Below, piece after piece: positions 1,747-56,230 of a DNA stretch of 64,000 bases. This stretch comes from an uncultured Anaerolineae bacterium (GTDB lineage: Bacteria > Chloroflexota > Anaerolineae > JAFGEY01). The notes below the pieces were generated by a model. It worked only from the letters and a program-made list of their open reading frames with translations. It was not told the DNA's origin and ran no database searches. The position numbers and the translations under genes were made by a program. The stretch spans positions 1-64,000 of the forward strand of contig CAYVBK010000015.1 of NCBI GenBank assembly GCA_964449465.1, read 5' to 3'. Within the stretch, counting starts at the first letter, position 1. Each line of letters begins with the position of its first letter.

Positions 1747-4305
1747 TCAGTCTACTAGCTGCTGAGCCTGCTGCTGTGCTTCCGCCAGCACCGACGCTGC
1801 TTGCGCGCCGGACAGAATCTCGGCAAAAGCCCAATCGAGCCATTTCAGTTGATCGGACTGTTGAGCAGTGGGCCAGGGAACGGGAATGTATTCCAACACG
1901 GCGCGGTAGGTGTCCAAATCCTTCTCTTCACCAGCCCATATCTCAACATCGAGTTCCCAGCCCGAGCGTCGAGCCGGCATGCGTCCGGGAAAGAGGGCAT
2001 AATCGCTGGCGAACTTGATCCATTCCCAGCAGGCCTGTGCGTGCAGAGTCTTGTCGCTGATGAACAGGCCAGTGTAGATAAACTGCGCTGCCGAAGCATC
2101 CGGCGAGACCGGCAGCGGCGCGATACCCACCGGCATTGCAGCTGGCAGGGCCAGATCGCGGTCGATGCCGGAATAATCTGTCCACATAGCGACACGCCCC
2201 TGCCGCACCAGCAGACTGAGCGCAGCCTGGCTATCGGCCTCCGACAGGTTGGCGGATAAAACGGGCAGCACGTGGTGCTGCAACGCCAGGTCGGCAAACC
2301 ATTGCACCGCCGTGACCACGTCGGGCGCATCGAAGCGTGGCTGGCCTTCCGCATCCCACAATTCAACACCCTGCAATGCCAAAAAGGCAGGCAGGTTAGC
2401 AATCTGACCATTCAAAAAGGCCAGGCCGTACTGCTCCAGAGCCGGATCGGTCGAGGTCAAGGCAAGCGCTTTACCCACCAGATCGTCCGTCGTCCAACCC
2501 GGTTCGGGGTAGGCGACACTGGCCTGGTCAAACAGGGCACGGTTGAAAAAGACAACCCGGGTCTCCGCGCACACCGGCAACCCCCACAGTCCATTCTGAT
2601 GTCGAAAAGCATCCACAAAATACACATCTTGCAATGATAAGGTGGGATCGGCGTTAACGAACGGCTGGAGATCGAGCAGCCCCGCGCGGGTATTGCCGCC
2701 GGCCGCCGAAGCAAACGACCGAGCAGAACAGTCGGCGGCGACAGGAGCAGCGTCGTCGACTAACTCGACCCAAATGCGCTTTTGCGCTCCGTTAAAGATC
2801 TCTATCGTCTCCCGCCAGACATTTTTTTCGGTCACATCACAAGAAAAGCGAACGGTTGTCCGTGTCCCGACGCGATCCGGCTGGTTTGAGGCGACAGCCG
2901 GCGGCGGGACGGGCGTAGCCTGCGAGAGAGCAGCGAGCGATTGGGACGCCTGCATCTGGGCTGTGCCCAGAGCATCCTGAATAGTCTGCCCGGCCCAAAC
3001 CGCCTCGACGGCAGACTGAAGTGCGGTAGCAATCTGGGGATAAAGCGGCACTCGGGCATGATCGAGCGCGTACCGGATCGCCGCAGCATCCGCTTCGTCC
3101 CACTGCATCCAATAGCCGGACTGCCGGGCAACCGAGACGCGGGCAGGGAGGCTGTACGCCGAACCACCCGTCACACACTGGCGGCTCAGGAATTTGAGCC
3201 ACCGCCAGCTTGCCTCGCGATACGCAGTGCCGCTGCTGATCAGGTAGCCTTGCACGTACAGGGGATTGGCGTTTTGCTCGCCCAGCGGCAGGGGCGCTAC
3301 CCCGACCCGCCGCTCGCCGGTCTGTCCCATGACGGGCAGGCCGCTCAACAAGTTGATCCACATAGCGGCCCGGCCGGTGTTGACCAGATCGTACAGCCAC
3401 ATCTGCCGGGCGGGTGCGCCCCGCGACGCCTGAGCGTTCGACCATTCCTGCGGTATCCGGGCCGGATCGGGCATCACACCGTGCCAGAGCGCCAGATCGA
3501 CATACCATTGCAGCGCAGCGACGGTCTGCGGCGTGTCCAAAAGCAGCCTGGGCGGTTCGACCGAATCGTCGACCAGGCTGCCGGTCACGCCCTCGACAAA
3601 GGGCGCGACTTGCATACTGACATCGACCAGTCCGTAGCGCTGAATTTCGTTTCCCTCGCGTAGGGTCAACTGCTGTGCCGCGACAAGCAGGTCTTCGCGG
3701 TCCCAACCCGGCTGAGGATAGGGCAGACCGGCGGCGTCAAAGGCATCTTGATCGTACAGCATCACGATCAAGTCCGCCTGGGCCGGCACGCCCCAGACGC
3801 GATTCCCCTGCACCATGCGCTTCCACAGCGCGGGGTAAAAGTCGGCCTGCTCAAACTCAGGATCGGCCTCGATCAAGGGAGCGAGGTCGAGCAACAAGCC
3901 CTGCCTGATCGCGCCGGGAGACGGCATCCAATAGGCGGTGTCCGCCGTCGAGACGATTTGATAGGCGATTTCGGCCTCAACCTGGGCTGCGTTCTCGGAA
4001 GTCAGCCTGGACAGATCGGCTATTTCGTTCAGAGTCACGATGCGAACGCGGACGTCCGGGTTGTCCTGCTCGAAAACGCCAGCCAGGCGGACAAACTCGG
4101 GCTTTTGCCACTCGTAGCAGGCAAACGAGATCGTGATCGGCTGGGGATCGTCTACCTGGACAGCGGCGCGGGTTGGCGCGACCGTCGGTGAAGGAGGCAC
4201 GGACGATAGGGATGCGGTAGACAGATTAACCGTTTGGCAGGCTGGCACAGTGATGATAAACAAAGTCAAGGTGATCAAGAAAATGAATCGATGTCGATAG
4301 TTCAT
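1747..4305 (-). CDS. Large lipoprotein with two tandem extracellular solute-binding protein (SBP family 1-like) domains.
   Basis: Start ATG at 4305 follows SD AAGGAAGGA. Lipobox LFIITVPAC. Two internal repeats resemble periplasmic-binding-protein N-termini (ITISFACYEWQKPEFV.. and TTVRFSCDVTEKNVW..). No permease or ATPase gene is adjacent. Confidence 0.65.
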   Translation of the reverse strand: MNYRHRFIFLITLTLFIITVPACQTVNLSTASLSSVPPSPTVAPTRAAVQVDDPQPITISFACYEWQKPEFVRLAGVFEQDNPDVRVRIVTLNEIADLSRLTSENAAQVEAEIAYQIVSTADTAYWMPSPGAIRQGLLLDLAPLIEADPEFEQADFYPALWKRMVQGNRVWGVPAQADLIVMLYDQDAFDAAGLPYPQPGWDREDLLVAAQQLTLREGNEIQRYGLVDVSMQVAPFVEGVTGSLVDDSVEPPRLLLDTPQTVAALQWYVDLALWHGVMPDPARIPQEWSNAQASRGAPARQMWLYDLVNTGRAAMWINLLSGLPVMGQTGERRVGVAPLPLGEQNANPLYVQGYLISSGTAYREASWRWLKFLSRQCVTGGSAYSLPARVSVARQSGYWMQWDEADAAAIRYALDHARVPLYPQIATALQSAVEAVWAGQTIQDALGTAQMQASQSLAALSQATPVPPPAVASNQPDRVGTRTTVRFSCDVTEKNVWRETIEIFNGAQKRIWVELVDDAAPVAADCSARSFASAAGGNTRAGLLDLQPFVNADPTLSLQDVYFVDAFRHQNGLWGLPVCAETRVVFFNRALFDQASVAYPEPGWTTDDLVGKALALTSTDPALEQYGLAFLNGQIANLPAFLALQGVELWDAEGQPRFDAPDVVTAVQWFADLALQHHVLPVLSANLSEADSQAALSLLVRQGRVAMWTDYSGIDRDLALPAAMPVGIAPLPVSPDASAAQFIYTGLFISDKTLHAQACWEWIKFASDYALFPGRMPARRSGWELDVEIWAGEEKDLDTYRAVLEYIPVPWPTAQQSDQLKWLDWAFAEILSGAQAASVLAEAQQQAQQLVD

Positions 4306-4442
4306 AGTCCTTCCTTGAGCGATAGGTAGCATAGAATAAACAAAACACCAATGGGCAGCGCTCAGTCCATTGGCGTTTTCAAGGTGCGGTCAAACACCCT
4401 CTATTATATCATCACAAGTGCGTTTTGTGCCTTACAGCATCC

Positions 4443-5120
4443 TTACAGTTTGGGGGCTTCCGGCAGCAGGTACCCTTGGCCTTTGACCGTCACCACTATT
4501 TCCGGGCCGAGCTTGTCCCTGAGGCGGTGAACGGCCGTCCAGACCGCATTGAGATCGACGCCGGACGCGCAGCCCCACACCTCGCGGCGCAGCGTCTCGA
4601 AGGCAACCACCTGTCCCCGGCGGCGGGCCAGGCACGCCAGCAACGCGGTTTCGAGTGAGGTCAATGATATGGTCTCGCCTTCGCGAGTCGCCCGGCCGGT
4701 GCGCAAATCGGCGAGCCATTCACCCACCCGAAACTGCTCTCTGACCTGCCGCGCCGCCCAGGCCTCCTGCACGGTCGCCCAGACTTGTTTCGGTTGGAAC
4801 GGTTTGGTCAAATAGTCAAACGCGCCCCGTTTCATCGCCTCCACTGCCTGCGCCACCGTCGCAAAAGCGGTGAGCAAGATCACCTCCGGCGCAGGGTCGA
4901 GCGTTTTCAGCTGCTCCAGCAAATCAAGGCCCGACAGACCCGGCATCACCACGTCCAACAGAGCCAGGTCTATGCCATTGATCATCGCCAGCTCCCAGGC
5001 CTGCTTGCCGTCGGCAGCCGGCCATACGGCGCACCCATAATGGGCCAGGTACGTCGCCAGAATATCCCGCGTGTCGGGGTCGTCGTCGGCCACCAGCACG
5101 CGCGGCGCACAACCGTCCAT
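4443..5120 (-). CDS. OmpR/PhoB-family response regulator (receiver + winged-helix), copy 2, intact.
   Basis: MDGCAPRVLVADDDPDTRD..LLDVVMPGLSG..KRGAFDYLTKPF receiver, with a C-terminal trans_reg_C-like domain (..VWGCASGVDLNAVWTAVHRLRDKLGPEIVVTVKGQGYLL). GGAGGTG SD lies 7 nt before the ATG at 5120. Confidence 0.85.
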   Translation of the reverse strand: MDGCAPRVLVADDDPDTRDILATYLAHYGCAVWPAADGKQAWELAMINGIDLALLDVVMPGLSGLDLLEQLKTLDPAPEVILLTAFATVAQAVEAMKRGAFDYLTKPFQPKQVWATVQEAWAARQVREQFRVGEWLADLRTGRATREGETISLTSLETALLACLARRRGQVVAFETLRREVWGCASGVDLNAVWTAVHRLRDKLGPEIVVTVKGQGYLLPEAPKL

Positions 5121-5154
5121 TCCCCACCTCCGCCAATGAATTTGGATATGCTCT

Positions 5155-5182
5155 ATTATATGCAGAGGGGGGAGAGGGGCAA
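5155..5182 (-). promoter_or_regulatory. Sigma70-like promoter of response-regulator copy 2.
   Basis: Minus strand reads TTGCCCCTCTCCCCCCTCTGCATATAAT, identical to the copy 3 promoter. Confidence 0.45.
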
Positions 5183-5292
5183 ATGATCGGGGGGAGGCGA
5201 AGGCGGCGGAGAGAAAACTGCTGTAAAACACCCGCGCCGACGCATGACGTTGATACACCCAGCATCGGCGATTCATCGTCTCTCCTCGCCCT

Positions 5293-7746
5293 TCAGGGCA
5301 CCATTTGGGCCAGCGGATGCGCCTGGTCGGTCTCCCGCACGCATTTGCCCAACGTGGACGGCTCGACCCCGGCGGCTGCACTCATGCACGCCGCAAACTG
5401 TGCTGCCTTGTCTTGAGCCTGCAACAAGGCGGCCTCCAGCCCAACGCCCGTTTGCCGCAGCGCCGTCTCGAACCACCACAAGGCCACGTCCTGGACCATG
5501 GCCGCGTCGTCCCGTCCAGGCAGATTTTGGCCGCGCTTCAGGGCGGTCAAGTATGCGGCGCGCAAATCGCGGTTTGAAGCGGCCTGCGTCTCCCAACCGT
5601 CAAGCAATGTCCGGTTGGCCGGAAGCGCGTCTGAAGCGGGCGGAAATTGGTGGGCCAGCGCAGCCCACTCCCAGGCTATATTGGCGTGTTGGCTGCCGCG
5701 AACGACGCCGGCAAAAGTGACCTGGATGGGCCAGCGGACGCCGGCACGCGGCACGATCGCCACCGCGTCCATCGGCTCGCCCCGGTAATGCTGTATGCCG
5801 AAAAAGCCGACCGGCAACTGCATCACCGAGGCTGAAGTGGTGGGGGCGAGAATTGTCCCGCTGGCTTGCAGCGAGCCCAGCCATTCGAGCGCCTCGATGA
5901 CCAGGGACGAGACAAACTGCGGGGTGAGGCGATCCGGCTCGAACAGCGAAATGCCCTGTTGTTCCAGGACAAAACGCACCTCGCTGCCGGAAAGCGGCGC
6001 ATAGCCGATCAGTTTGGGGTTCGCCGCCCGGATCTGGGCCGCCGCCGCCAGCACGTCGGCGACCGTCCAATCGGAAGCGGGGGGCGCGATGCCGAGTTCG
6101 GCAAAAGTGGCCGCGTGATAGTACAACACCAGCGGGCGCATCGACAGGGGAACGCCCAGGACGCAGCCATGCCACGAAACGACCTGCAGCGCCTGTGCAT
6201 CGAAAGCATCAGCGTCGAGATTGACCTCGCTCAGCGAGCTGACCGCAGCCATATTTTGCTGCGCGTAAAGGAACACCAGCCAATCGAGTGGGTTGGTATC
6301 CCAGACCAGCACGTCCGCCTGTTGGCCGGCAGGGCCTACATCAGACACCTGAACGCTCCAGTCAGGATGCTGCGCCGCGAACGCTGCCGAAATGGTCTCA
6401 TAGTCCGGCACGTTCGAATTCATGTTCATCACCGCCAGCGTTTCTTTGTCCTGGCTTGAGACGACCTGCGGCACGACGGCAAACGGCTCAAACTCGGTGT
6501 CGTACTCGTACCACAAATCTACCGCCGCCCGCGCCGACTGTTGCGCGTGGACCAGGGCCTCGCCGGGCGGCACATCGGCGTAACAGGCTTCGAGCATAGC
6601 TTTGATCAGCGCCAACCGAAATCGGTTGACCAGTTCGCGCTCCGTCCAATCAGGCAGGTACGCCTGCCCGTCGAGGATAGTCTGCACCCACTGCGCGACC
6701 TGCACATCCATCTTGTCCCAGCTACGGGCTAGGTCGGCCACCGACTTGCGCGCAGGCAAGTCGGCACTGGCATTGGGCGGCAGATTTTGGCTCAGAAAAC
6801 GGACCCAGGCCCAGGCGGCCTGGACGTTTTGCGTGCCCCGGCTGATGCTCAAAACGCCATCCGCCTTGATCTCTTGAAACAGGTTGGGCTGTGGGTACGC
6901 TGTCATCGCCAGGCTGACAAAGTCTTGCTGCTGGGCTACAAAGTCTCGAATCAAGACCGTTGTCATCGCGGCCCGGCCTTCGTCGAGGTAGGCCAGAGGA
7001 CGATAGCCTGCTGGTGGACCGACTTGCGGATCGACGGCAACGGACAATTCGGGCAGAAAGCGGCACACGTCGGATAGGGAGGCTTCCAGTTCGACCGCGT
7101 TCAGCGCAGGCACAAGCTGTCCCTCAATATAGGTGTACAGTGGCGATTGTGCGTGCAGCCAGTTGAACAAGACAATGCTGCGATCCAGGTCGTCGGAGAA
7201 CGCAGCCGTTTGTTCCGGGCCTGGATGGCTCATATTGACCGCGCGGGCTATATCAAGCAGTGTTTGCCATGACCACGCAGACGACGATAAATCGATCCCC
7301 GTTTGAGCCACGAGATCGCTGTTATAAACCAGCGCCTCAAACTCCAGCCCGATTGGGATGCCGATCAAGCGGTCGTCGACCCGCGTGTAGATGGTCTCAT
7401 AGCCGGTGGCCAGCGCACCTGGATAAAAATCATCGACCTCAAACTGAGGGTCAGATTTGATCAACGATTTGAGATCGATGAGTAGGTCGGTCTCATAGGG
7501 GGTGTGCCATAGCAGCGCGGCATCAAAGTGGAGAGGCCAGTCATCGGGGATATTGTACTGATAGGTAATGTGAATTTCATACCCAGGGAAACGCTCCTCA
7601 AAGTCGGTTATGTACTCGTTCAAGTCGAATGCAGGGTGGGCAACAAAATAGATCGGCGTGGGGGCGGCGGGGGTCAGATTTATACAACCAGACAGACAGA
7701 ACAAACTAAAGATTATTAGCCATTGTGTTTTATTTAAAGAGATCAT
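5293..7746 (-). CDS. Large lipoprotein with tandem SBP-like domains, a paralog-type partner of 1747..4305.
   Basis: ATG at 7746 follows an AGGA SD. Lipobox LFCLSGC. Two SBP-like halves in 817 aa. Same architecture and neighbourhood as 1747..4305. Confidence 0.65.
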   Translation of the reverse strand: MISLNKTQWLIIFSLFCLSGCINLTPAAPTPIYFVAHPAFDLNEYITDFEERFPGYEIHITYQYNIPDDWPLHFDAALLWHTPYETDLLIDLKSLIKSDPQFEVDDFYPGALATGYETIYTRVDDRLIGIPIGLEFEALVYNSDLVAQTGIDLSSSAWSWQTLLDIARAVNMSHPGPEQTAAFSDDLDRSIVLFNWLHAQSPLYTYIEGQLVPALNAVELEASLSDVCRFLPELSVAVDPQVGPPAGYRPLAYLDEGRAAMTTVLIRDFVAQQQDFVSLAMTAYPQPNLFQEIKADGVLSISRGTQNVQAAWAWVRFLSQNLPPNASADLPARKSVADLARSWDKMDVQVAQWVQTILDGQAYLPDWTERELVNRFRLALIKAMLEACYADVPPGEALVHAQQSARAAVDLWYEYDTEFEPFAVVPQVVSSQDKETLAVMNMNSNVPDYETISAAFAAQHPDWSVQVSDVGPAGQQADVLVWDTNPLDWLVFLYAQQNMAAVSSLSEVNLDADAFDAQALQVVSWHGCVLGVPLSMRPLVLYYHAATFAELGIAPPASDWTVADVLAAAAQIRAANPKLIGYAPLSGSEVRFVLEQQGISLFEPDRLTPQFVSSLVIEALEWLGSLQASGTILAPTTSASVMQLPVGFFGIQHYRGEPMDAVAIVPRAGVRWPIQVTFAGVVRGSQHANIAWEWAALAHQFPPASDALPANRTLLDGWETQAASNRDLRAAYLTALKRGQNLPGRDDAAMVQDVALWWFETALRQTGVGLEAALLQAQDKAAQFAACMSAAAGVEPSTLGKCVRETDQAHPLAQMVP

Positions 7747-7856
7747 TATGTCCTCGAAAAAGGATAGTGCCCCTTAACAGGTTTCGTACTGTCATCGGTT
7801 AAAAGACACTACCAAAAAACGGCAGAAAAGGCTTATCCGACGTCAAATCAGCAGAA

Positions 7857-8237
7857 TTATACGCAGAAAACCAAAAAGTAATAAGTCACACAGTTGATGT
7901 CTCTCGTAGCTCCGGTTGGAGAACAAGAAGTGCCACCAGGACCATTGATGCAGTACCATTCTGCCTGCTTGTCACAAATCCTTTCGCACTTTGGTCCTAA
8001 AAGACCACAATCCCAACAATACTTTGATTGCCCGGCAGGTCGCCACTCAAACCATTCGCCAATCGCATATACGGTGCTTGGCATCGCAACGACAAGAACG
8101 GTCAGCACAAACGACGCAAGTAACATCCCTGACAACACTTTGTACATACTTTTTAAATCGAGTAACTTGAGCATTTTTCCTTGCGATTCGCTCATTTTTT
8201 CCAGAGTTCTTGAAATTGCCCGATCATATTTGACCAT
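7857..8237 (-). CDS. Small Cys-rich secreted protein, 126 aa, with a signal or anchor and 8 Cys.
   Basis: ORF on the minus strand. Hydrophobic MLLASFVLTVLVVAMPSTVYA is followed by ..YCWDCGLLGPKCERICDKQAEWYCINGPGGTSCSPTGATRDINC... Its first 17 codons lie inside the duplicated 361 bp element. An alternative ATG (MLKLL..) follows an AAGGAAAA SD. Confidence 0.45.
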   Translation of the reverse strand: MVKYDRAISRTLEKMSESQGKMLKLLDLKSMYKVLSGMLLASFVLTVLVVAMPSTVYAIGEWFEWRPAGQSKYCWDCGLLGPKCERICDKQAEWYCINGPGGTSCSPTGATRDINCVTYYFLVFCV

Positions 8238-8548
8238 AGCTTTTTATGTCAAGGGGGCCAGCCCCTTGACAAACCCCGTCGAGGGTGCTTTGCCCCCCGC
8301 CCCCCCCCGAAAACCGGGGTGTTTTCTGTCGTCGCAGACCAGGCAAAGGCCATAGCCAGACATACGAACGACTTGTGCCTGGTTTTCAGCCCCTGCCGAC
8401 AGAATGTGGGCGGCTTTTGGGGGGTCTGGGTGGGCGCAGCCCCCTACAGTGAAATGGGCATCAGTCCTTTTTCAGACGGCAGTTCATAAAACATCGTTTT
8501 TAATCTAAAAGGTTTTTATATGTCCATCAAAAATGAACGAACTAAAAG
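8188..8548. repeat. Duplicated ~360 bp structured non-coding element, copy 1.
   Basis: About 90% identical to 40293..40654. Contains a perfect hairpin TGTCAAGGGGGCCAGCCCCTTGACA (8247..8271), a poly-C/G hairpin ccccccgaaaaccgggg, and the first 17 codons of the small-ORF start (MVKYDRAISrTLEKMSE). Confidence 0.6.
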
Positions 8549-8573
8549 TTTTTCTCCTCATTCCTTTGCAATA

Positions 8574-9215
8574 CTATTTGCCTTTTCTGCCATCTACGAC
8601 CAGGGTCATCATCTCATTCTCTGTGTGCACATACCCGGCATTAATAATAACGCCTACTTCATCTATCATATAAGCAAATGGCACACTATTTATCTGATAA
8701 TTATGTGCAACTTCTTGCTGCATCTCTGAAACGTATAGCACCGGAAAATTGAAGCTATTTGTTTGTGCAACACGTTGAGCCTCTTCTTGTGTACCCAGCA
8801 GAATCATCGCTACTTGCACATCCTTCCGACTATGGCTGAATTTATCCAGTTCGGGCCACATCTCAACGCAGCTACTGCACTGTGGGGATGAAAAAACCAA
8901 GACCAATGGCTTTCCGGCAAAATCAGTCAATGATATCTGGGACCCAAGCGTGTCAGTTAAAACAAAAGGCGGAGCATCAATACCAATTTCTAACCCTGTT
9001 CCGTGCGCCGTTTGCGAAGATTGTTTCATTAATTCGACCTGATTTTGTGCTAGCGACTTGAGCGGGGCCGCAGCCGCCAATACCTCTTGGTGTACTTGAT
9101 TCATCCGCACGAACAGGCCAATGATGGCCACCATCAACAGGATGACGATGCCCATCAACATCATCAAGAGCGTTTCCAGGCGCGCTTCATGGCGGGTATC
9201 CGTTGTCTCGGTCAT
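8574..9215 (-). CDS. Membrane-anchored thioredoxin-fold thiol-disulfide oxidoreductase (TlpA/redoxin-like).
   Basis: ATG at 9215 follows SD AAGGAGA. N-terminal TM segment, then a thioredoxin-like core with a CSSC motif (FSSPQCSSCVEMWPEL). Confidence 0.65.
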   Translation of the reverse strand: MTETTDTRHEARLETLLMMLMGIVILLMVAIIGLFVRMNQVHQEVLAAAAPLKSLAQNQVELMKQSSQTAHGTGLEIGIDAPPFVLTDTLGSQISLTDFAGKPLVLVFSSPQCSSCVEMWPELDKFSHSRKDVQVAMILLGTQEEAQRVAQTNSFNFPVLYVSEMQQEVAHNYQINSVPFAYMIDEVGVIINAGYVHTENEMMTLVVDGRKGK

Positions 9216-20343: not shown

Positions 20344-23300
20344 TCAGGGCGCGCTGCGCAGCACCAACGGCAAATAGACCTCTTGCAAGCCAACAGCGAA
20401 CAAGGCGCCCTTGTTGTTGCTGCTGCTGACATTGCCGGCGCGGTCTACCACCTGGATGATGGCCTGTACCGGCGTGTTGAGCGGCGCGTTGACGGTATAT
20501 TCCCACAAACCGGTGGACAGATTGGGGCTCATCTCGATGGTGTGCCAGGCCGGCCCGCCCCAGTTATAGGTACACCACACATGGGCAATGCCCGACTGGT
20601 CGTCGCCGGCATCCACGCTAAAGCGAGTTTGCGTAGGGCCGAGTAGTTCGCTGTTGACCGCCCAGATCGAAGGCGGGATATAGTCGGTGCTGTCGGTGAA
20701 ATAGACGCGCACGGTGATCTCGGTATACAGCCGCTCGATCTGATCGTCAGCCAGATATTGAGCAGGCACCAACACCAGGGTATCCTGACCGCCCAACCGG
20801 TTGACGGCGGCAATATGGATGGGATACCAGCCCTCATAGTCAAAGGGCGGCTCGCTGACGGCTGTATCGGTGACCACGGCGGCAATGACCGGATCGAAAT
20901 TAGAGATCGAGGTGATCTGGCTGCCCGACACCACGACACCGCGGGCGATCAGGCCGGACTGCGGCGGAGTGATGGGCAGGCTGATCAACGGCTGTATGGG
21001 CCGCCCGGCGCCGACCTGGGTGGTATCCAGGCCGTCTATGGTGAAAAAGGTGCCGCGTTCGGGGACGGTGTGCGGGATAAAGTGGAATCGGCAGCGATAA
21101 ATGACCTCGCTCCCGACGGTAGAAACATCACAAGGATCGGCGGCGGCACGCAGCGGCGGCGCCGGGTTTGGCACAGACACCTGGAACATGGGCAGGCCGT
21201 ACAGGGTGGCCTGGATCATGACCTTTTCGTCATAGCGGCTAAACCCGCCGGCCGGGATGGCCTCGACATAGCGGTGTTTGGCCCGCATCAGGGCATCGCC
21301 CACAGCGACGCCGCTATAGCGGCCCAATTCCTGGCCGAAAAAGAGCATCAATTGTTCCGAGTAGGCCACTTCGGTGCTGTCGCCCAGCCCATAGCCGGTA
21401 TTGCCCACAAATGCCCCGGCCTGCCGCCGCGCCAAAGCCTGAGCAAAATCCAGGGCGGTAGTAGGGTTGTCGCTGTCGGCGTCCGGCACTTGATAGCCAG
21501 CATGACAGCCCACCGACCAGACCACATTGCCCTCTTGGGGAGAACTGGCCCCTTCAATGTCGCTGGGGATCAAGTAACCCTGGCTCTCGTTGGGTGGGAT
21601 AGCCGCCCAGTGCGACATATGGGCGTTCAGCGAGACCAGATCCTGGTCGGTGTTGTTTATCCATACATCTCGCAGGTTGTCGGCGTGCCAGGTTTCGCCG
21701 ATCAGGGTTTGGGTGATCAGGCCAAAGTCGCCCATTTGGGCGTTGATAGCGGCCGCACTGTCACTCAAAAAGTCATAGCCGGTGGTGAGGGAACGAACGG
21801 CGTTAAGCGCATGATAGCCCATGTTATAATACTGCAACATGTTGATGATCTCGTCCGGCGTTTCAATCAAGCGGCCGACGGCCAGTTTGGGAATATACAG
21901 GCCATGGCCACGCCAGAACCTGGGCGCCGGGTCGCCGTAAAAATTGTCGGTCAGGATGAACCCCCAGGCCAGCGCCGACCAGGTGGCATTGCCACTTTGC
22001 AGGTAGGCCGACGGGATGTACTCGCGCTCGTTGGCGATAAAAGAAGTGTCTGGCACGCGATAAAACGGGATCATACGATCATCGCCGACCAGGACAATGT
22101 AACGGATGTTGGGATAACCAGACAGGATGGGATGGACAATCTGCTCAAAAATCGCCTCGGCCACCCGGTTGGCGCGGTGAGGATTGCAAAAATCGGCATC
22201 CCACTCGTTGTATTGAGATTGAACTGTCGCATTGTTGTCTATGACATAGACGATGCCGTTGACATCAGGGTCTCCGGCCAGAGTGTACAGCTCGGTAGGA
22301 ATACCGGCGGTATCGGTGACGCCAAAAGCATAATCCAGCCGCTGCTTGTTGACCAAGATCAGAGTATGCACGTCGGTGTACGACACGGTCGGGTAAAAGG
22401 AGGTCATAAAATTTGAGTTGCTATAGTCAAATTGCGGTGTGCAGCCGCCCACATATGCGCCCAATGTCTCAGTTTGCGTGACCAGGCCATAGGCGTGGTT
22501 GGGATCGTACTCGCCACCATGCCCGATCACCAGGATATAATAGCGGCCCGGCCGCAGGGCCAGAGTGGTGGCCGTTTCCCAGGCCTGACCGGGATTGGTC
22601 GAAATAGCTGTCATCTGGCCGATAGCCGTCATCTGGCCGATAGCCGTCATCTGGCCGATAGCCGTCATCTGACCAATAGCCGTCATCTGGCCGATGGCCG
22701 TCATCTGGCCGATGGCATTCACATCCGAGTTGTCTTGCAGGTCGCCGAGCAGCGCGTCACCGCTCAAAGAGGGCGCCTGGCTCAAATCGGCAAACACGGC
22801 CAGGTCATAATCGGCGGGCAGGTCTTTGAGGGTGACGGTGAAAACAGACGGCGTATCAATTTCCAGGTAATACCAGTCCACATCATCTTGCCAGCCGATC
22901 TTGGCCCATACTGTGTTGTTCAAAGGCAAGGGGGCGGCTTCCATAGCCGAGTCGTTGGACTCGAACGAGTCGTTGCCTTCTTGTTGGCGACTCACTTGCA
23001 GTTCAGCCAGGGCAGTCAACAGAGTGTCATTTTGATTTTTGATGATGGCCGAACCGTAGAATGTGCGCCCCAAAGCTTCCATGTCAATCTGGTTAGAGAC
23101 ATAGACCTGGCCGGGGTTGAGAGAAATGTCCTGAGCATAGACCATGCGACCGCCGGGGTCATGAAAATAGATGGTAAAAGTGTCGGGAATATCACCAATA
23201 TTTTTCAAGATGATACGTGAATTGCGCCCGGCCGCGCGCACAATGTGCGGCAGCACGGCGCTATAGGTGATCGAGTCGGGCGGCTGATAGGCCTCTACCC

Positions 23301-30587: not shown

Positions 30588-30604
30588 CGACCGCCAAAAC
30601 AGCA

Positions 30605-30738
30605 AGGAGTGTACTGAAAAACCCTTTTACCACCAAGACACAAAGAACACAAAGAATTTCTAAAAACTCAAAAGCATTGTAAACCTTGGTGTTCTCGGTG
30701 TCCTTTGTGGTAGAAATAGACTTTTTCAGCGGCCTCCA
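30605..30738. mobile_element. MITE-like element (copy B) in the znuA-znuC intergenic region.
   Basis: Same family (..ccaccaagacacaaagaacacaaag...gtgtcctttgtggtagaaatagactttttcagcggcctcc). Lies 18 nt after the znuA stop and 48 nt before the znuC ATG. Confidence 0.7.
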
Positions 30739-30786
30739 AGGGGGATATAGGTGTCCTCAATCCAGGATATTCAAAAGGAGCGTTTC

Positions 30787-33454: not shown

Positions 33455-33605
33455 AAGTCCGCTGAAAAAACTGGGAGCGTGCTGAAAAACCCTCTCAACA
33501 CCAAGACACAAAGGACACCAGGCATTTCTAAAAACTCAAAAGCATCGTAAACCTTGGTGTTTTCGGTGTCCTTTGTGGTAGAAATAGACTTTTTTTCAGC
33601 GGATT
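33455..33605. mobile_element. MITE-like element (copy C), with a short internal duplication of its left end.
   Basis: Same family. Left end reads gtccgctgaaaaaactgggagcgtgctgaaaaaccc, a partial duplication. Confidence 0.65.
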
Positions 33606-38728: not shown

Positions 38729-40233
38729 TGCACTCTCCACACATGCACCACCGGTTTGGCCTCATCGGCGAACAGTTCCAGCACGTACAGCAGACCGTTC
38801 TGCCGGTCATAGGCCACATCGCCGATGCGCGCCCGACGCTGATCGCCCCAACCCAGATCGATCTCTTCCCACTCGGGTGGGTTGAGGTAAAGGTGTTCAT
38901 CAATGTCAATCACGGCATACGGCTGCGGCCGCCACGGTTCAATCTCGCCGGCAGCAACGCGGGCCAGATCGTCCGGATCATAGAGGATAAACTGCGCATC
39001 AAAGCGAGTCGTCCACCACCCCCGATTGCTGACACACGTGCCTGCATCCTCATCACAGCACCCGTCAAAATTCTCCGATGGACAGGCAGAACCGTCGGCC
39101 TGACGGCAGGTAATAAAATCGGTCACATGGTCGTCCACGCAAGGATACTGCGAGCCGGCCGGGTTGATATAGCCGTACCAGTATTTCGTGCCAGCACTCT
39201 TGGTGCCGGCAAAAAGCACCGCCGCCTTGCCAGATGGAGCATCCATCCACGCTCCACCTTCCCAAGCATCAGGGTGTTGATAGCCATCCAGGCAGCGAAC
39301 GATATCTTGAGTATTGTAGGCATTTTCGTAGAGCAGCAAGGTCGTCTCTGCCAGGCGTGTGCCCGGCGGCGACGCGTCGCCGCCGGACAGCCAGGGACGG
39401 TAGGCAAAAAGAGATGGACCCATGCCACCCTGACCGCCATCGCGCATGCGGCCGGTAGCCAAAACACGACCTTGGGTGTGAGCATCGGCCCACTCGGCGG
39501 GGATATCAAACATGTAGGCGTTGGTGCTGTAGAGATTTTGACTACCGATGAACCACACTCCTTGCAGGTTGGGTGCGGCCAGGTTGGCACTAAACCAGGC
39601 ATGAGATGGCTCATTTTCGGGCTGAAGGTGCTGTCCCCAGCAAAGGTGGACCAGAGGGCCGGTGAGGGGATGGTTGAGATATTGCATCCCGACCTTGGGG
39701 ATTTCCTCCAGGTTGGCAAAATAACCGTGCGTGACATCGGCAAAGTTTTGGATAAAGGCCGCCTGGGGCAGATCGGCGGGGTTGCTGGCGATAACGGGAA
39801 TGGGGATGTTGACTTCAGCCACCTGATCACCGTCTGGCAGATCGCCATAAGGCTGCCGGTCGTGCCCGGTGATGAACAGCGAGCCGGGGTGCGTATTGGT
39901 TGTTGCCGCCGGGCCGTCGGGGTTAAAGGTTATGGCATTGCCGCCATAGGCAAACGTGCGCGGCGGCCCCTCGTCGCCGGGCAGGCGAAACGCGCCCAGG
40001 TAGGTCAGATCGGCAGGCATCACCCGACCAGGCGAATGGCTACGGGTCACGACAGGCAGGTACGTGGTGGGGGTCACAGTTTGCGCCGGCCAGATAGCAG
40101 TGGGAGAGGATCGTGCCACATCAACATCGGTTTCAGCAGGCAAAACGGGATCGCCCGACGCGCAGGCACAGATAGCCATGATCACACACAGGCCAAACCC
40201 AGACAAAACAGCAGGTAGATGGCGATGTTTCAT
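38725..40233 (-). CDS. Hypothetical lipoprotein, 502 aa, Cys-rich C-terminal region.
   Basis: ATG at 40233 follows SD AGGAGG. Lipobox IMAICAC. No family recognised. Confidence 0.5.
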   Translation of the reverse strand: MKHRHLPAVLSGFGLCVIMAICACASGDPVLPAETDVDVARSSPTAIWPAQTVTPTTYLPVVTRSHSPGRVMPADLTYLGAFRLPGDEGPPRTFAYGGNAITFNPDGPAATTNTHPGSLFITGHDRQPYGDLPDGDQVAEVNIPIPVIASNPADLPQAAFIQNFADVTHGYFANLEEIPKVGMQYLNHPLTGPLVHLCWGQHLQPENEPSHAWFSANLAAPNLQGVWFIGSQNLYSTNAYMFDIPAEWADAHTQGRVLATGRMRDGGQGGMGPSLFAYRPWLSGGDASPPGTRLAETTLLLYENAYNTQDIVRCLDGYQHPDAWEGGAWMDAPSGKAAVLFAGTKSAGTKYWYGYINPAGSQYPCVDDHVTDFITCRQADGSACPSENFDGCCDEDAGTCVSNRGWWTTRFDAQFILYDPDDLARVAAGEIEPWRPQPYAVIDIDEHLYLNPPEWEEIDLGWGDQRRARIGDVAYDRQNGLLYVLELFADEAKPVVHVWRVQ

Positions 40234-40292
40234 ACAAAAATCCTCCTATCACCGGGACAGACTTGTGCCAGCCTGAGCAGATCACTTGCAGT

Positions 40293-40654
40293 TCGCTCAT
40301 TTTTTCCAGAGTTTTTGAAATTGCCCGATCATATTTGACCATAGCTTTTTATGTCAAGGGGCCAGCCTCTTGACATACCCTGTCGGGGATGCTTGACCCC
40401 CCGAACCCCCCGAAAACCGGGGTGTGTTCTGTCGTCGCAGACCAGGCAAGGGCAATAGCTAGACATAAGAACGGATTTTCCCTGGTTTTCAGCCCCTGCT
40501 GACAGAATGTGGGTGGTTTTTGGGGGGTCGTAGGGGGTGAGGTTGCCCCCTACAGTGAAATGGGCATCAGTCCTTTTTCAGACGGCAGTTCATAAAACAT
40601 CGTTTTTAATCTAAAAGGTTTTTATATGTCCATCAAAAATGAACGAACCAAAAG
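40293..40654. repeat. Duplicated ~360 bp structured element, copy 2.
   Basis: About 90% identical to 8188..8548, including the MVKYDRAISkTLEKMSE start. Here the downstream ORF degenerates and runs into the 3' end of gene 38725..40233. Confidence 0.6.
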
Positions 40655-40661
40655 GATCAAG

Positions 40662-45165: not shown

Positions 45166-45330
45166 CCGAGTCCACTGAAAAAACCACCAAGAACACCAAG
45201 TACACGAAGAAAGTCAAGACTTGCATTAATTATTTCAATATTTTATTTGAACAATTTCAAGCTCAACCTGAATTTTCTTTGTGGCCTTTGTGTTCTTTGT
45301 GGTTAAATCCACCTTTTTTCAGGAGAGTCA
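45166..45330. mobile_element. Divergent MITE-like element (copy D).
   Basis: Shares the ends ccactgaaaaaacc ... tttgtggcctttgtgttctttgtgg...ccttttttcagg with the family, but has a different AT-rich interior. Confidence 0.45.
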
Positions 45331-51113: not shown

Positions 51114-51716
51114 TCATTTTGGGGCGACACTCGGGCAATGATGCCACTTGATCGCCGCCTGCACCCGGCTTTCCACCCCCATCTTGCTCAAAATGTTGCT
51201 GACATGGTTGCTGATTGTCCGCGCACTGACACCCAACACATCCGCAATCTCGCTATCCTTCTTGCCTTCGGCCAGCAGGCCCAACACCTGACGCTCGCGC
51301 GGTGTCAACGCGCACAATACTTTTGCCTCCTCTAGCCGCGCCTGCCGCGCCGCCCAGGCCTTGCCAACCACCTGGCGCATCTGGTTGATGCAGATAGGTT
51401 TGGTCAAATAGTCGGTCGCGCCTCGTTTCATGGCTTCCACTGCCTGCGCAACCGTCGCGTACGCAGTGATCAAAACAATCTCCGGCGCGGGATCCAGCGT
51501 TTTCAGCCGATCCAGCAACTCGAGCCCCGACAGCCCCGACATCACCACGTCCAGCAAGGCGATGGCAACCTCGCCAGATTGGGCCAGCGTCCAGGCTGTC
51601 TCGCCATCGCCAGCGATCAGCACCTCAAAGCCATCATAGGTCAGGCAGCCCGACAAAATATCGCACATATCCTGGTCGTCGTCGGCGACCAGGACGCGCG
51701 GCGCGCCACACTCCAT
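51114..51716 (-). CDS. NarL/LuxR-family response regulator (receiver + LuxR HTH).
   Basis: MECGAPRVLVADDDQDMCDIL..LLDVVMSGLSG..KRGATDYLTKP receiver. HTH LTPRERQVLGLLAEGKKDSEIADVLGVSARTISNHVSNILSKMG. The receiver is ~70% identical to the OmpR-type copies. Confidence 0.85.
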   Translation of the reverse strand: MECGAPRVLVADDDQDMCDILSGCLTYDGFEVLIAGDGETAWTLAQSGEVAIALLDVVMSGLSGLELLDRLKTLDPAPEIVLITAYATVAQAVEAMKRGATDYLTKPICINQMRQVVGKAWAARQARLEEAKVLCALTPRERQVLGLLAEGKKDSEIADVLGVSARTISNHVSNILSKMGVESRVQAAIKWHHCPSVAPK

Positions 51717-51754
51717 TCTCCACCTCCGTTAGAAAATGATGGTAGACAGGCTTG

Positions 51755-51782
51755 ATTATATGCAGAGGAGGGAGAAGGGCAA
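51755..51782 (-). promoter_or_regulatory. Sigma70-like promoter of the NarL-type regulator, homologous to the promoters of the OmpR-type copies.
   Basis: Minus strand reads TTGCCCTTCTCCCTCCTCTGCATATAAT. Confidence 0.4.
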
Positions 51783-51888
51783 ACGGTTGGGTAGAGGAGG
51801 CAGCGGCAGAGGGGGTAGAACGGCGGTAAAACATTCGCGCCGATACCGGCATTGGTACGCTGGTATCGGCGCGAGGAAAGGGGTAGAA

Positions 51889-55351: not shown

Positions 55352-56230
55352 ATGAGTGAAAAGGTGATTTGTCCTAACTGTGGACATTCCGCTCAAGCAG
55401 GATCCAAGTTTTGTCCTGATTGCGCACATCCACTTGGCCAAACTTTATCTGCTGAGCCATCTGTGTCTGCGCCAAATCAGCCTGCTCAAGCAGCTCTGGC
55501 CAAACCCTCCAAAAAGATTCCGATTTGGTTGATTATCATCGGGATTGTTGTTTTGGGTGGTATCGCTATTTGTTGTATATCAGCTATTCTTTATAAACCT
55601 TCTCCAGAAACAGCAGCAGAATGGACGGTAACTGCTGATGCCAAAAATATTCGAAAAACTGCAACAGCATCGGCTAGAGAAACCGAAACAGCCAGACCAA
55701 CATCGACTCCAACCAACACACCTGCGCCAACCAACACACCTGTGCCAACCAACACACCTGTGCCAACCAACACACCCTTACCTACTGAGACACCTCGTCC
55801 AACTGATACTCCTGCGCCGACGAGTACACCTGGTCCGACTGATACGCCTATGCCAACGAATACACCAACTCCAACAATTACACCTACTCCTGTGCCACTA
55901 GCGCCAACCTGCTCGGAAATGTTCAAAACCAAATCGGGAATGACCGATGTGCAGTGGGATAACTATAAGAAAAATCTAGTTGGCCTATGGGTCGTAGACT
56001 GGAAAGCCAAAGTCCGAGAGGTGGGGGACAAAAGCATACTTGCTGGTGGTTATCCAGTGTATATAGATGTAACCAGTGATTGCAGTCTCTATTATGTTAT
56101 TAAAGATGTAGAAACAGCCCTGAAATTTTCCAAAGGCCAAAGTATTGTTATCACCGGACAGATTAATTCGGTAAATGAATTTTTTGGGATCACGCTTTAT
56201 CTGGAGAACAGTGCTGTCGAGATCAAGTAA
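55352..56230 (+). CDS. Membrane protein with an N-terminal zinc ribbon, one TM segment, a Pro/Thr-rich repetitive linker and a C-terminal globular domain. Low-GC gene.
   Basis: [18 protein letters not shown] zinc ribbon. [25 protein letters not shown]. Linker (PTNTPxPTNT)n encoded by 18 bp tandem repeats at ~55709..55790. Confidence 0.6.

Follow-up and report, generated by a model that had tools for sequence, protein, structure and literature searches.

We describe a sequence of about 370 bp that occurs twice in a 64-kb stretch of DNA (hereafter the window) and is very probably a MITE (a small mobile element made of non-coding DNA) from a family that appears not to have been described. With a length below 500 bp and no transposase gene, it has inverted repeats, is flanked by direct duplications that differ between its copies, occurs as dispersed size variants and is polymorphic in its insertion; these are the features by which a MITE is recognised. 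The A+T-rich composition typical of MITEs, which is not a defining trait, is not found here, as the core is G+C-rich.

Extent and Sequence of the Two Copies

The two copies lie 32 kb apart and are 90.6% identical over 373 aligned columns (MAFFT, blastn), which bears out the duplication that had been noticed in the preliminary description of this DNA. Sensitive blastn detected no third copy within the window. The right ends given earlier (8548 and 40654) were reproduced; the left ends had been placed at 8188 and 40293, and the true starts are 8 bp further left at 8180 and 40285 (Table 1). Copy 1 is located between a TlpA/MauD-like redoxin gene and the gene of a small Cys-rich secreted protein. 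Copy 2 is located 2 nt past the stop codon of a 1489-aa gene and 52 nt before a 502-aa gene. The named homologues of the neighbouring proteins come from Chloroflexota and Anaerolineales MAGs, so that the host most likely belongs to the uncultured Anaerolineae.

Composition is as first described, with A+T-rich ends around a G+C-rich core that contains C6GC9 and G6 tracts. The identity between the copies is uneven: 96% in the left 77 nt, 88% in the 137 nt of the core and 99% in the right 110 nt. The higher identity of the ends (96–99% vs 88%) suits termini that are under constraint. The element cannot be read through in any frame shared by the two copies: each of the six frames is broken, and indels put the copies out of register with each other. 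A search of 5.8 billion proteins with the concatenated six-frame translation of the element gave no relative at E≤1.

Table 1. Positions in the window of the two element copies, their parts and the flanking gene of copy 1.
Feature	Position	Strand	Remarks
Element, copy 1 (369 bp)	8180–8548	+	Alignment and blastn with copy 2
Element, copy 2 (370 bp)	40285–40654	+	Alignment and blastn with copy 1
Left terminal inverted repeat, copy 1	8180–8199	+	CTTGCGATTCGCTCATTTTT; 13-bp core 8187–8199
Right terminal inverted repeat, copy 1	8529–8548	-	Reverse complement CTTTTAGTTCGTTCATTTTT
Left terminal inverted repeat, copy 2	40285–40304	+	CTTGCAGTTCGCTCATTTTT
Right terminal inverted repeat, copy 2	40635–40654	-	Reverse complement CTTTTGGTTCGTTCATTTTT
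Left target-site duplication, copy 1	8174–8179		TTTTTC; first base is the A of the minus-strand ATG at 8174
Right target-site duplication, copy 1	8549–8554		TTTTTC; read from sequence
Left target-site duplication, copy 2	40280–40284		GATCA; read from sequence
Right target-site duplication, copy 2	40655–40659		GATCA; read from sequence
Promoter-like site, copy 1	8223–8252	-	TTGACA-18-TATGAT, 11/12 consensus; towards the Cys-rich gene
Promoter-like site, copy 2	40328–40357	-	TTGACA-18-TATGAT, 11/12; towards the 502-aa gene
Hairpin	8247–8271		TGTCAAGGGG-GCCAG-CCCCTTGACA; perfect in copy 1, copy 2 equivalent 40350–40377
G+C-rich core	8282–8445		Imperfect rod, C-tract pairs with G-tract; least conserved part (88%), absent from the 49-bp derivative
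Flanking gene, small Cys-rich secreted protein	7857–8174	-	Outside the element; probable start ATG 8174, 105 aa, MLKLLDLKSMYKVL...

Terminal Inverted Repeats and Target-Site Duplications

Both copies end in imperfect inverted repeats of 20 bp with a 13-bp core, TTCGYTCATTTTT, and a terminal consensus CTTnnnnTTCGYTCATTTTT. The left terminus of about 20 bp reads CTTGCRRTTCGCTCATTTTT and the right one, reverse-complemented, CTTTTRGTTCGTTCATTTTT. The match is about 15/20 overall, the terminal CTT...AAG included, and it is best in the core: TTCGCTCATTTTT (8187–8199; 40292–40304) pairs with AAAAATGAACGAA (8529–8541; 40635–40647) at 12 of 13 positions in both copies. These best-matching 13-bp repeats are subterminal, 7 nt from each end of the element. 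With at most one mismatch allowed, the core is found four times in 64 kb, exactly at the four ends, with 0.12 matches expected.

Each copy is bounded by its own direct repeat. The repeats TTTTTC and GATCA differ between the copies, and both abut the limits of inter-copy similarity. We estimated how often such repeats arise by chance in an empirical test on the window that let each boundary shift by 0–2 nt. Flanking repeats 5 bp or longer are expected by chance at ∼0.012 per copy and at ∼1.5e-4 for both copies.

A hexamer, TGAGCA, is found just outside the left duplication of both copies. It was considered as part of the element and ruled out, as it is flanking sequence in the related strain described below.

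Insertion Polymorphism, a 49-bp Derivative and a Probable Further Copy

We looked up Logan short-read contigs carrying the flanking genes. One of them, L018 (SRR14149861), is 96.3% identical to window positions 45200–40659 and 98.3% identical to 40247–36522, a flank identity of 96–98% that indicates a conspecific strain. The 370 bp of copy 2 and the duplicated GATCA are missing from the orthologous site, and the 1474-aa gene of L018 is followed by a spacer and the 502-aa gene without the full element. The empty site is inexact (CT-TTT-TGCTC vs the expected CT-TGATC-TGCTC), so that an imprecise excision or deletion looks the same as a primary absence.

About 45 nt from this empty site, L018 carries 49 bp (4590–4638) that are absent from the window, CTTGCGGTTCGCTCATTTTTCAAGTTCTTCAAAATGAGCAAACCAAAAG. 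They consist of the left 20-mer with 1 mismatch, ∼10 nt and the right terminus, and they lack the G+C-rich core. This short copy is flanked by AGGGG/AGGAG (4/5 match), has no TGAGCA beside it and sits inside the Shine-Dalgarno region of the 502-aa gene. Window and L018 therefore differ by presence or absence at two sites within one species. The derivative, which by its sequence is made of termini only, suggests that it is the termini that count.

Direct observation is limited to two full copies and one mini copy. The contig L005 (ERR4510095) covers window positions 5155–8209 and ends exactly 30 nt inside copy 1, the distance k-1 for k=31. Since copy 2 departs from copy 1 at 8185–8187 and at 8209, the stop at 8209 indicates that the sample holds another copy, one that matches copy 1 at every position of 8180–8210. 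Judged from this contig break, the ERR4510095 sample would hold at least one further full-length copy. In two other contigs, L001 and L002, the first base is 40344, which lies 30 nt beyond a copy-2-specific T at 40314, as expected if all sequence after 40314 is shared between copies. Logan contigs with the deaminase gene end inside the MoxR gene, before reaching the element. The element accounts for the breaks of short-read assemblies of this organism at its copies.

Searches of other collections gave no further copy. An internal 21-mer of the element had no match in GTDB representative genomes, and the left 20-mer had none in IMG/VR; sensitive blastn against plasmids (PLSDB) and phages (INPHARED) returned no match to the element. 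In GTDB the terminus-gap-terminus pattern yielded one Bacteroidaceae locus (L003), internally unrelated and at chance level. The internal 21-mer had one match in JGI metagenomes, a chance match in an unrelated gene (L004).

Folding of the Core

A perfect 10-bp hairpin had been described for both copies. It is present in copy 1 (8247–8256 / 8262–8271, 5-nt loop); in copy 2 one nucleotide of the stem is deleted and a G-T mismatch disturbs it. A local hairpin had been proposed for the poly-C and poly-G tracts. We find a long-range pairing instead, of 8282–8316 with 8411–8445, which reaches across about 100 nt, is 71% complementary and closes the core. Predicted folds are stable (z-scores -3.5 to -5.4) and similarly so on either strand, as is to be expected where inverted repeats abound.

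We considered whether the element is a free-standing small RNA gene in two copies, the core rod being its functional product. The stable G+C-rich core between A+T-rich flanks would fit, and the two copies retain a consensus fold, with 2 compensatory pairs on each strand, a figure that comes from two sequences. We took the minimum-energy fold of one copy and followed the fate of the 37 differing columns in the other. Between 18 and 23 of the 37 fall in paired positions, roughly in proportion to the ∼65% of all columns that are paired. They touch 17–21 predicted pairs, of which 29–53% stay pairable and 47–71% break, with 0–2 compensatory changes; two sequences give this test little power. The differences are thus often pair-breaking, and the core, with its indels, is the least conserved part. 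Furthermore, the only strong predicted promoter points away from the core, one family member has no core at all, and a small RNA gene leaves the inverted-repeat termini and the flanking duplications unexplained. We regard this reading as very unlikely. The stable rod-like fold of the core would rather be a property of palindromic sequence than that of a selected RNA.

A functional role of the core within a mobile element, by which the 369-bp form would be something beyond a decayed insertion sequence, is unlikely, though less so. The G+C-rich rod (∼8282–8445) and the promoter may together be functional cargo, or the rod may be an RNA for an unrecognised recombinase. In one variant, a mobile expression cassette, the rod might act as terminator, insulator or RNase target for the upstream transcript, with the promoter restarting the downstream gene. 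If either were true, this would be an unusual MITE family in Chloroflexota.

Little credence can be given to a plain segmental duplication or gene conversion between intergenic regions without any mobility of its own. Many other stretches of the window are duplicated, for instance response-regulator genes in 3–4 copies, and only the two full copies are seen directly. Such an event does not account for sharp boundaries with a separate 5–6-bp direct repeat for each copy, for inverted-repeat termini, for presence and absence at these very boundaries in a conspecific strain, or for a termini-only derivative at another site; the contig breaks moreover imply a further copy.

The Open Reading Frame and the Cys-Rich Gene

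Both copies lie, in the minus-strand sense, upstream of an open reading frame beginning MVKYDRAIS(R/K)TLEKMSE, as the preliminary description stated, and these 17 codons are encoded entirely within the left 58 bp of the element. In copy 1 the frame does continue into a Cys-rich protein that had been given as 126 aa; its start is to be moved, probably to the ATG at 8174, which leaves 105 aa. In copy 2 the frame had been thought to run into the 3' end of a gene. It runs instead over the 5' end of the 502-aa gene, in a different frame; this gene starts at 40233, and the same ATG opens a 69-aa frame (40133–40342), a spurious one, across the gene start.

The revised start of the Cys-rich gene is supported by the reconstructed empty site of copy 1, which reads GAGGAGAAAAATG. 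With the element and one TTTTTC removed, the minus strand restores ...AGGAATGAGGAGAAAAATGCTCAAG..., with a Shine-Dalgarno sequence and the ATG at 8174, giving MLKLLDLKSMYKVLSG.... The restored N-terminus resembles in form that of a syntenic 89-aa gene, MIGLLKKRNLLMSAMG... (MIGLLKKRNLL...), on the contig L016 of a more distant relative, whose redoxin is 58% identical to that of the window. On L016 the order is redoxin, small Cys-rich signal-peptide gene and large SBP-like gene, and a spacer of 49 nt precedes the small gene. BLASTP did not align the 89-aa protein with the 105-aa one, and the two are alike in type only. The spacer between redoxin and Cys-rich gene measures 399 nt in the window, that is 369 nt of element, 6 nt of duplication and 24 nt; together with the gene order on L016 this indicates an insertion into a conserved gene order. 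From these sequence comparisons, the Cys-rich protein is most likely 105 rather than 126 aa long. The element thus explains why the Cys-rich gene was given a false N-terminal extension of 21 codons and how the spurious 69-aa frame arose.

It had been suggested that the conserved codons are part of a leader module or a leader peptide. They are element DNA that overlaps the -10 hexamer of the predicted promoter described below, so a transcript from this promoter would start downstream of their ATG, and this ATG (8237) has no Shine-Dalgarno sequence. The frame is neither short nor closed, as a leader peptide would be, and continues into flanking DNA that differs between the copies. Nor does a terminator-like site come after it on the minus strand within the element. 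The "conserved 17 codons" are simply element sequence in which an ATG is by chance followed by an open frame.

The same observations bear on the suggestion that the element is a cis-regulatory leader (riboswitch, attenuator or leader peptide) of the downstream gene, duplicated together with its first codons. In its favor, both copies are directly upstream of a gene in the same orientation, fold strongly and share an ATG-initiated frame start. A scan of the whole window against Rfam 15 yielded no match at gathering scores, and at E≤10 only chance-level matches (E 3.6–7.9) were obtained over 7800–8900. The downstream genes are unrelated, one encoding the 105-aa Cys-rich protein and the other a 502-aa protein without a Pfam domain. 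The two strands fold equally and the touched pairs of the two sequences give no sign of covariation, as detailed above; the ATG at 8237 lies upstream of the predicted -10 box; and neither target-site duplications, nor an empty site, nor a core-less 49-bp member would be expected of a leader. We consider such a leader most improbable. From sequence, and with the little power that two copies give, neither a riboswitch or attenuator nor a selected small RNA finds support.

Proposed Mode of Transposition

We return to the MITE as the preferred reading. Points against it are the shortness and imperfection of the inverted repeats, the G+C-rich core, the inexact empty site, the small number of copies seen, the negative searches and the TGAGCA hexamer beside both left duplications. 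Among the possibilities raised in the preliminary description, a mobile promoter module and an unrecognised element came closest, the promoter being a predicted one; the element is complete, with its own inverted repeats and duplications, and is not the terminal part of something larger. A transposase encoded elsewhere in the genome would recognise the termini, make cuts staggered by 5–6 bp and so move the element in trans. No transposase gene is present within the 64 kb of the window, and no autonomous element with matching termini was found there or in our other searches. The IS1634 and IS481 families make duplications of 5–6 bp, and IS1634 termini begin with C. The duplication size and, for IS1634, the C-starting termini would fit, which makes these families a possible lead.

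A non-autonomous element could also be moved by a site-specific or RNA-guided recombinase (IS110/IS1111-like or integrase-dependent), with the core as guide or recognition RNA and no DDE transposase involved. The subterminal position of the 13-bp inverted repeats, the large structured non-coding core and the TGAGCA shared by the outer sides of both left duplications would agree with this. The insertion sites TTTTTC, GATCA and AGGAG differ, however, and all three are present in duplicate, the pattern left by staggered-cut transposition; the mini derivative was able to insert, or at any rate to persist, with no core and with no TGAGCA beside it; and no recombinase gene is nearby. Such a recombinase is therefore extremely unlikely. 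A composite transposon bounded by the two copies is ruled out, as each copy is flanked by a duplication of its own and there is no match between the outer flanks, and a tRNA-derived and a tandem-repeat origin were likewise considered and rejected.

Predicted Outward Promoter and Possible Effects on Neighbouring Genes

In both copies a promoter-like site is directed outward through the left end of the element, at the next gene, an orientation to which two copies lend little weight. Its predicted -35 box coincides with the outer arm of the hairpin, and its predicted -10 box with the "Y D" codons of the supposed reading frame. Only four sites in the 64 kb match as well on either strand, two of them inside the element. 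One of the two others is located ∼100 nt upstream of an ABC-transporter operon, which suggests that the consensus is meaningful in this organism. Insertion of the full-length element may thus supply or change the transcription of the next gene through a predicted sigma-70-type promoter, and may in this way rewire the expression of neighbours.

Two of the three insertions are inside or adjoining ribosome-binding sites. The findings describe an apparently new MITE family of an uncultured Chloroflexota-like lineage; it includes size variants, and its insertions differ between strains. They leave the understanding of such elements unchanged, and their value is chiefly in annotation.

Comparison With Described Elements

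Prokaryotic MITEs include QMITE1 of Coxiella with ∼400 bp and Chunjie of Geobacter with 178–235 bp (PMC10969869). Like these elements, the one described here is below 500 bp, has no transposase gene, carries inverted repeats in the range of 4–30 bp and direct repeats, is intergenic and folds stably as transcript or single strand (PMC10969869). Size variants with conserved termini, here of 369, 370 and 49 bp, are also known from the QMITE and Chunjie families (PMC10969869). Bacterial MITEs are typically A+T-rich (PMC10969869); the present element is unlike typical MITEs in its G+C-rich core, in its very low copy number so far and in its host, an uncultured Chloroflexota-like bacterium. We found no described MITE family for Chloroflexota in the open-access literature, a search that cannot show absence.

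Small inverted-repeat elements upstream of genes are also represented by the Correia elements of Neisseria (CREE/NEMIS), MITEAba12, BrickBuilt and SonMITE_1 (PMC10969869). Sigma-70-like promoters able to drive neighbouring genes are an established feature of Correia elements and a predicted one of several other MITEs (PMC10969869). The outward TTGACA-18-TATGAT towards the next gene is a similar arrangement; promoter activity is demonstrated for Correia elements and predicted here. The element has no sequence similarity to these. Correia elements have ∼100–200 bp, 26-bp inverted repeats and a TA duplication, compared with 370 bp, 13–20-bp inverted repeats of another sequence and 5–6-bp duplications in the present element. 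Membership in the Correia family is ruled out by these differences in termini and duplication.

With REP/BIME sequences the element shares that it is repeated, intergenic and hairpin-forming. REPs measure 20–40 bp and lack target-site duplications (PMC3733652); the present element exceeds them tenfold in length and carries both terminal inverted repeats and duplications. A separate palindromic family of 134 nt, present in the same window, is closer to the REP/BIME type.

The Termini-Only Derivative and the Flanks of the Element

A conspecific strain, represented by L018 (Logan contig SRR14149861_23381), carries a 49-bp derivative of the element, located at L018:4590–4638 and consisting of the termini only. 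Bordered by AGGGG/AGGAG, it sits where the 502-aa gene has its Shine-Dalgarno region, which corresponds to about 40247/40248 in the window. Copy 2 is absent from the same contig. Directly outside the left target-site duplication, both window copies have the hexamer TGAGCA (8168–8173 and 40274–40279). As the empty site in L018 reads GGAGCA where window copy 2 has TGAGCA, the hexamer is flanking sequence. It is absent next to the 49-bp derivative. Its presence beside both copies reflects either chance or a slight preference for such targets.

The only genome match to the terminus-gap-terminus pattern was a 352-bp stretch in a Bacteroidaceae MAG (JAFZPZ010000070.1; L003:3081–3432). Its long inverted ends (ATTCGTTCATTTTTCC...CTACTTTTCCTTCTACT) have the 13-bp core in common with the element and nothing else. 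The stretch is probably an unrelated inverted-repeat element matched by chance.

Other Repeats and Genes in the Window

A second repeat family of ~134 nt, unrelated to the element, is also present. Internally this repeat contains a long palindrome (CACCACCAAGACACAAAGAACACAAAG ... CTTTGTGTTCTCGGTGTCCTTTGTGGTAG); its ends are inverted (GCTGAAAAA/TTTTTCAGC) and its flanks CCTAGG-like. Logan contigs break here as well, with contig L001 ending at 33565. The duplicated OmpR-type response-regulator genes, near-identical at 84–99%, are a further cause of assembly breaks. Since three of them adjoin large SBP_bac_1-domain proteins (1747–4332, 5293–7746), these sets look like tandemly duplicated modules.

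Positions of repeats, gene copies and promoter-like sites in the window
Feature	Position	Remarks
~134-nt repeat	994–1149, 30591–30741, 33459–33594	
~134-nt repeat	61953–62354	three tandem copies, opposite orientation
~134-nt repeat, possible diverged relative	about 45170–45310	
OmpR-type response-regulator genes	364–1300, 4403–5211, 9298–10106, 51397–51811	three to four genes
18-bp tandem repeats	55691–55888, 22586–22747	in-frame
11/12 sigma-70 consensus match	13972–14000	minus strand
11/12 sigma-70 consensus match	63252–63280	plus strand

Besides the element's, the window has only the two 11/12 sigma-70 consensus matches listed, and the minus-strand one is ~100 nt upstream of an ABC-transporter operon (start 13868). 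Both 18-bp repeat arrays are within large secreted proteins; one encodes PTNTP-type linker repeats and the other, on the opposite strand, GQMTA-type repeats.

Gene order is conserved between window 5293–9236 and L016:116–3631, a locus of a more distant relative: a TlpA/MauD-like redoxin is followed by a small signal-peptide protein and then by a large double-SBP-like protein. Many redoxin homologues carry the annotation "methylamine dehydrogenase accessory protein MauD". Cys, Trp and Tyr are abundant in the small protein, which may be a secreted peptide that is disulfide-rich or modified.

The window also encodes, on the minus strand at 15761–18211, an 816-aa vault-like protein, here in a bacterium. 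Pfam marks MVP_shoulder and Vault_3 in it (precomputed hits on contigs L006 and L007), and its neighbours are VWA/BatA and AAA-ATPase-like/PDDEXK_9 genes.
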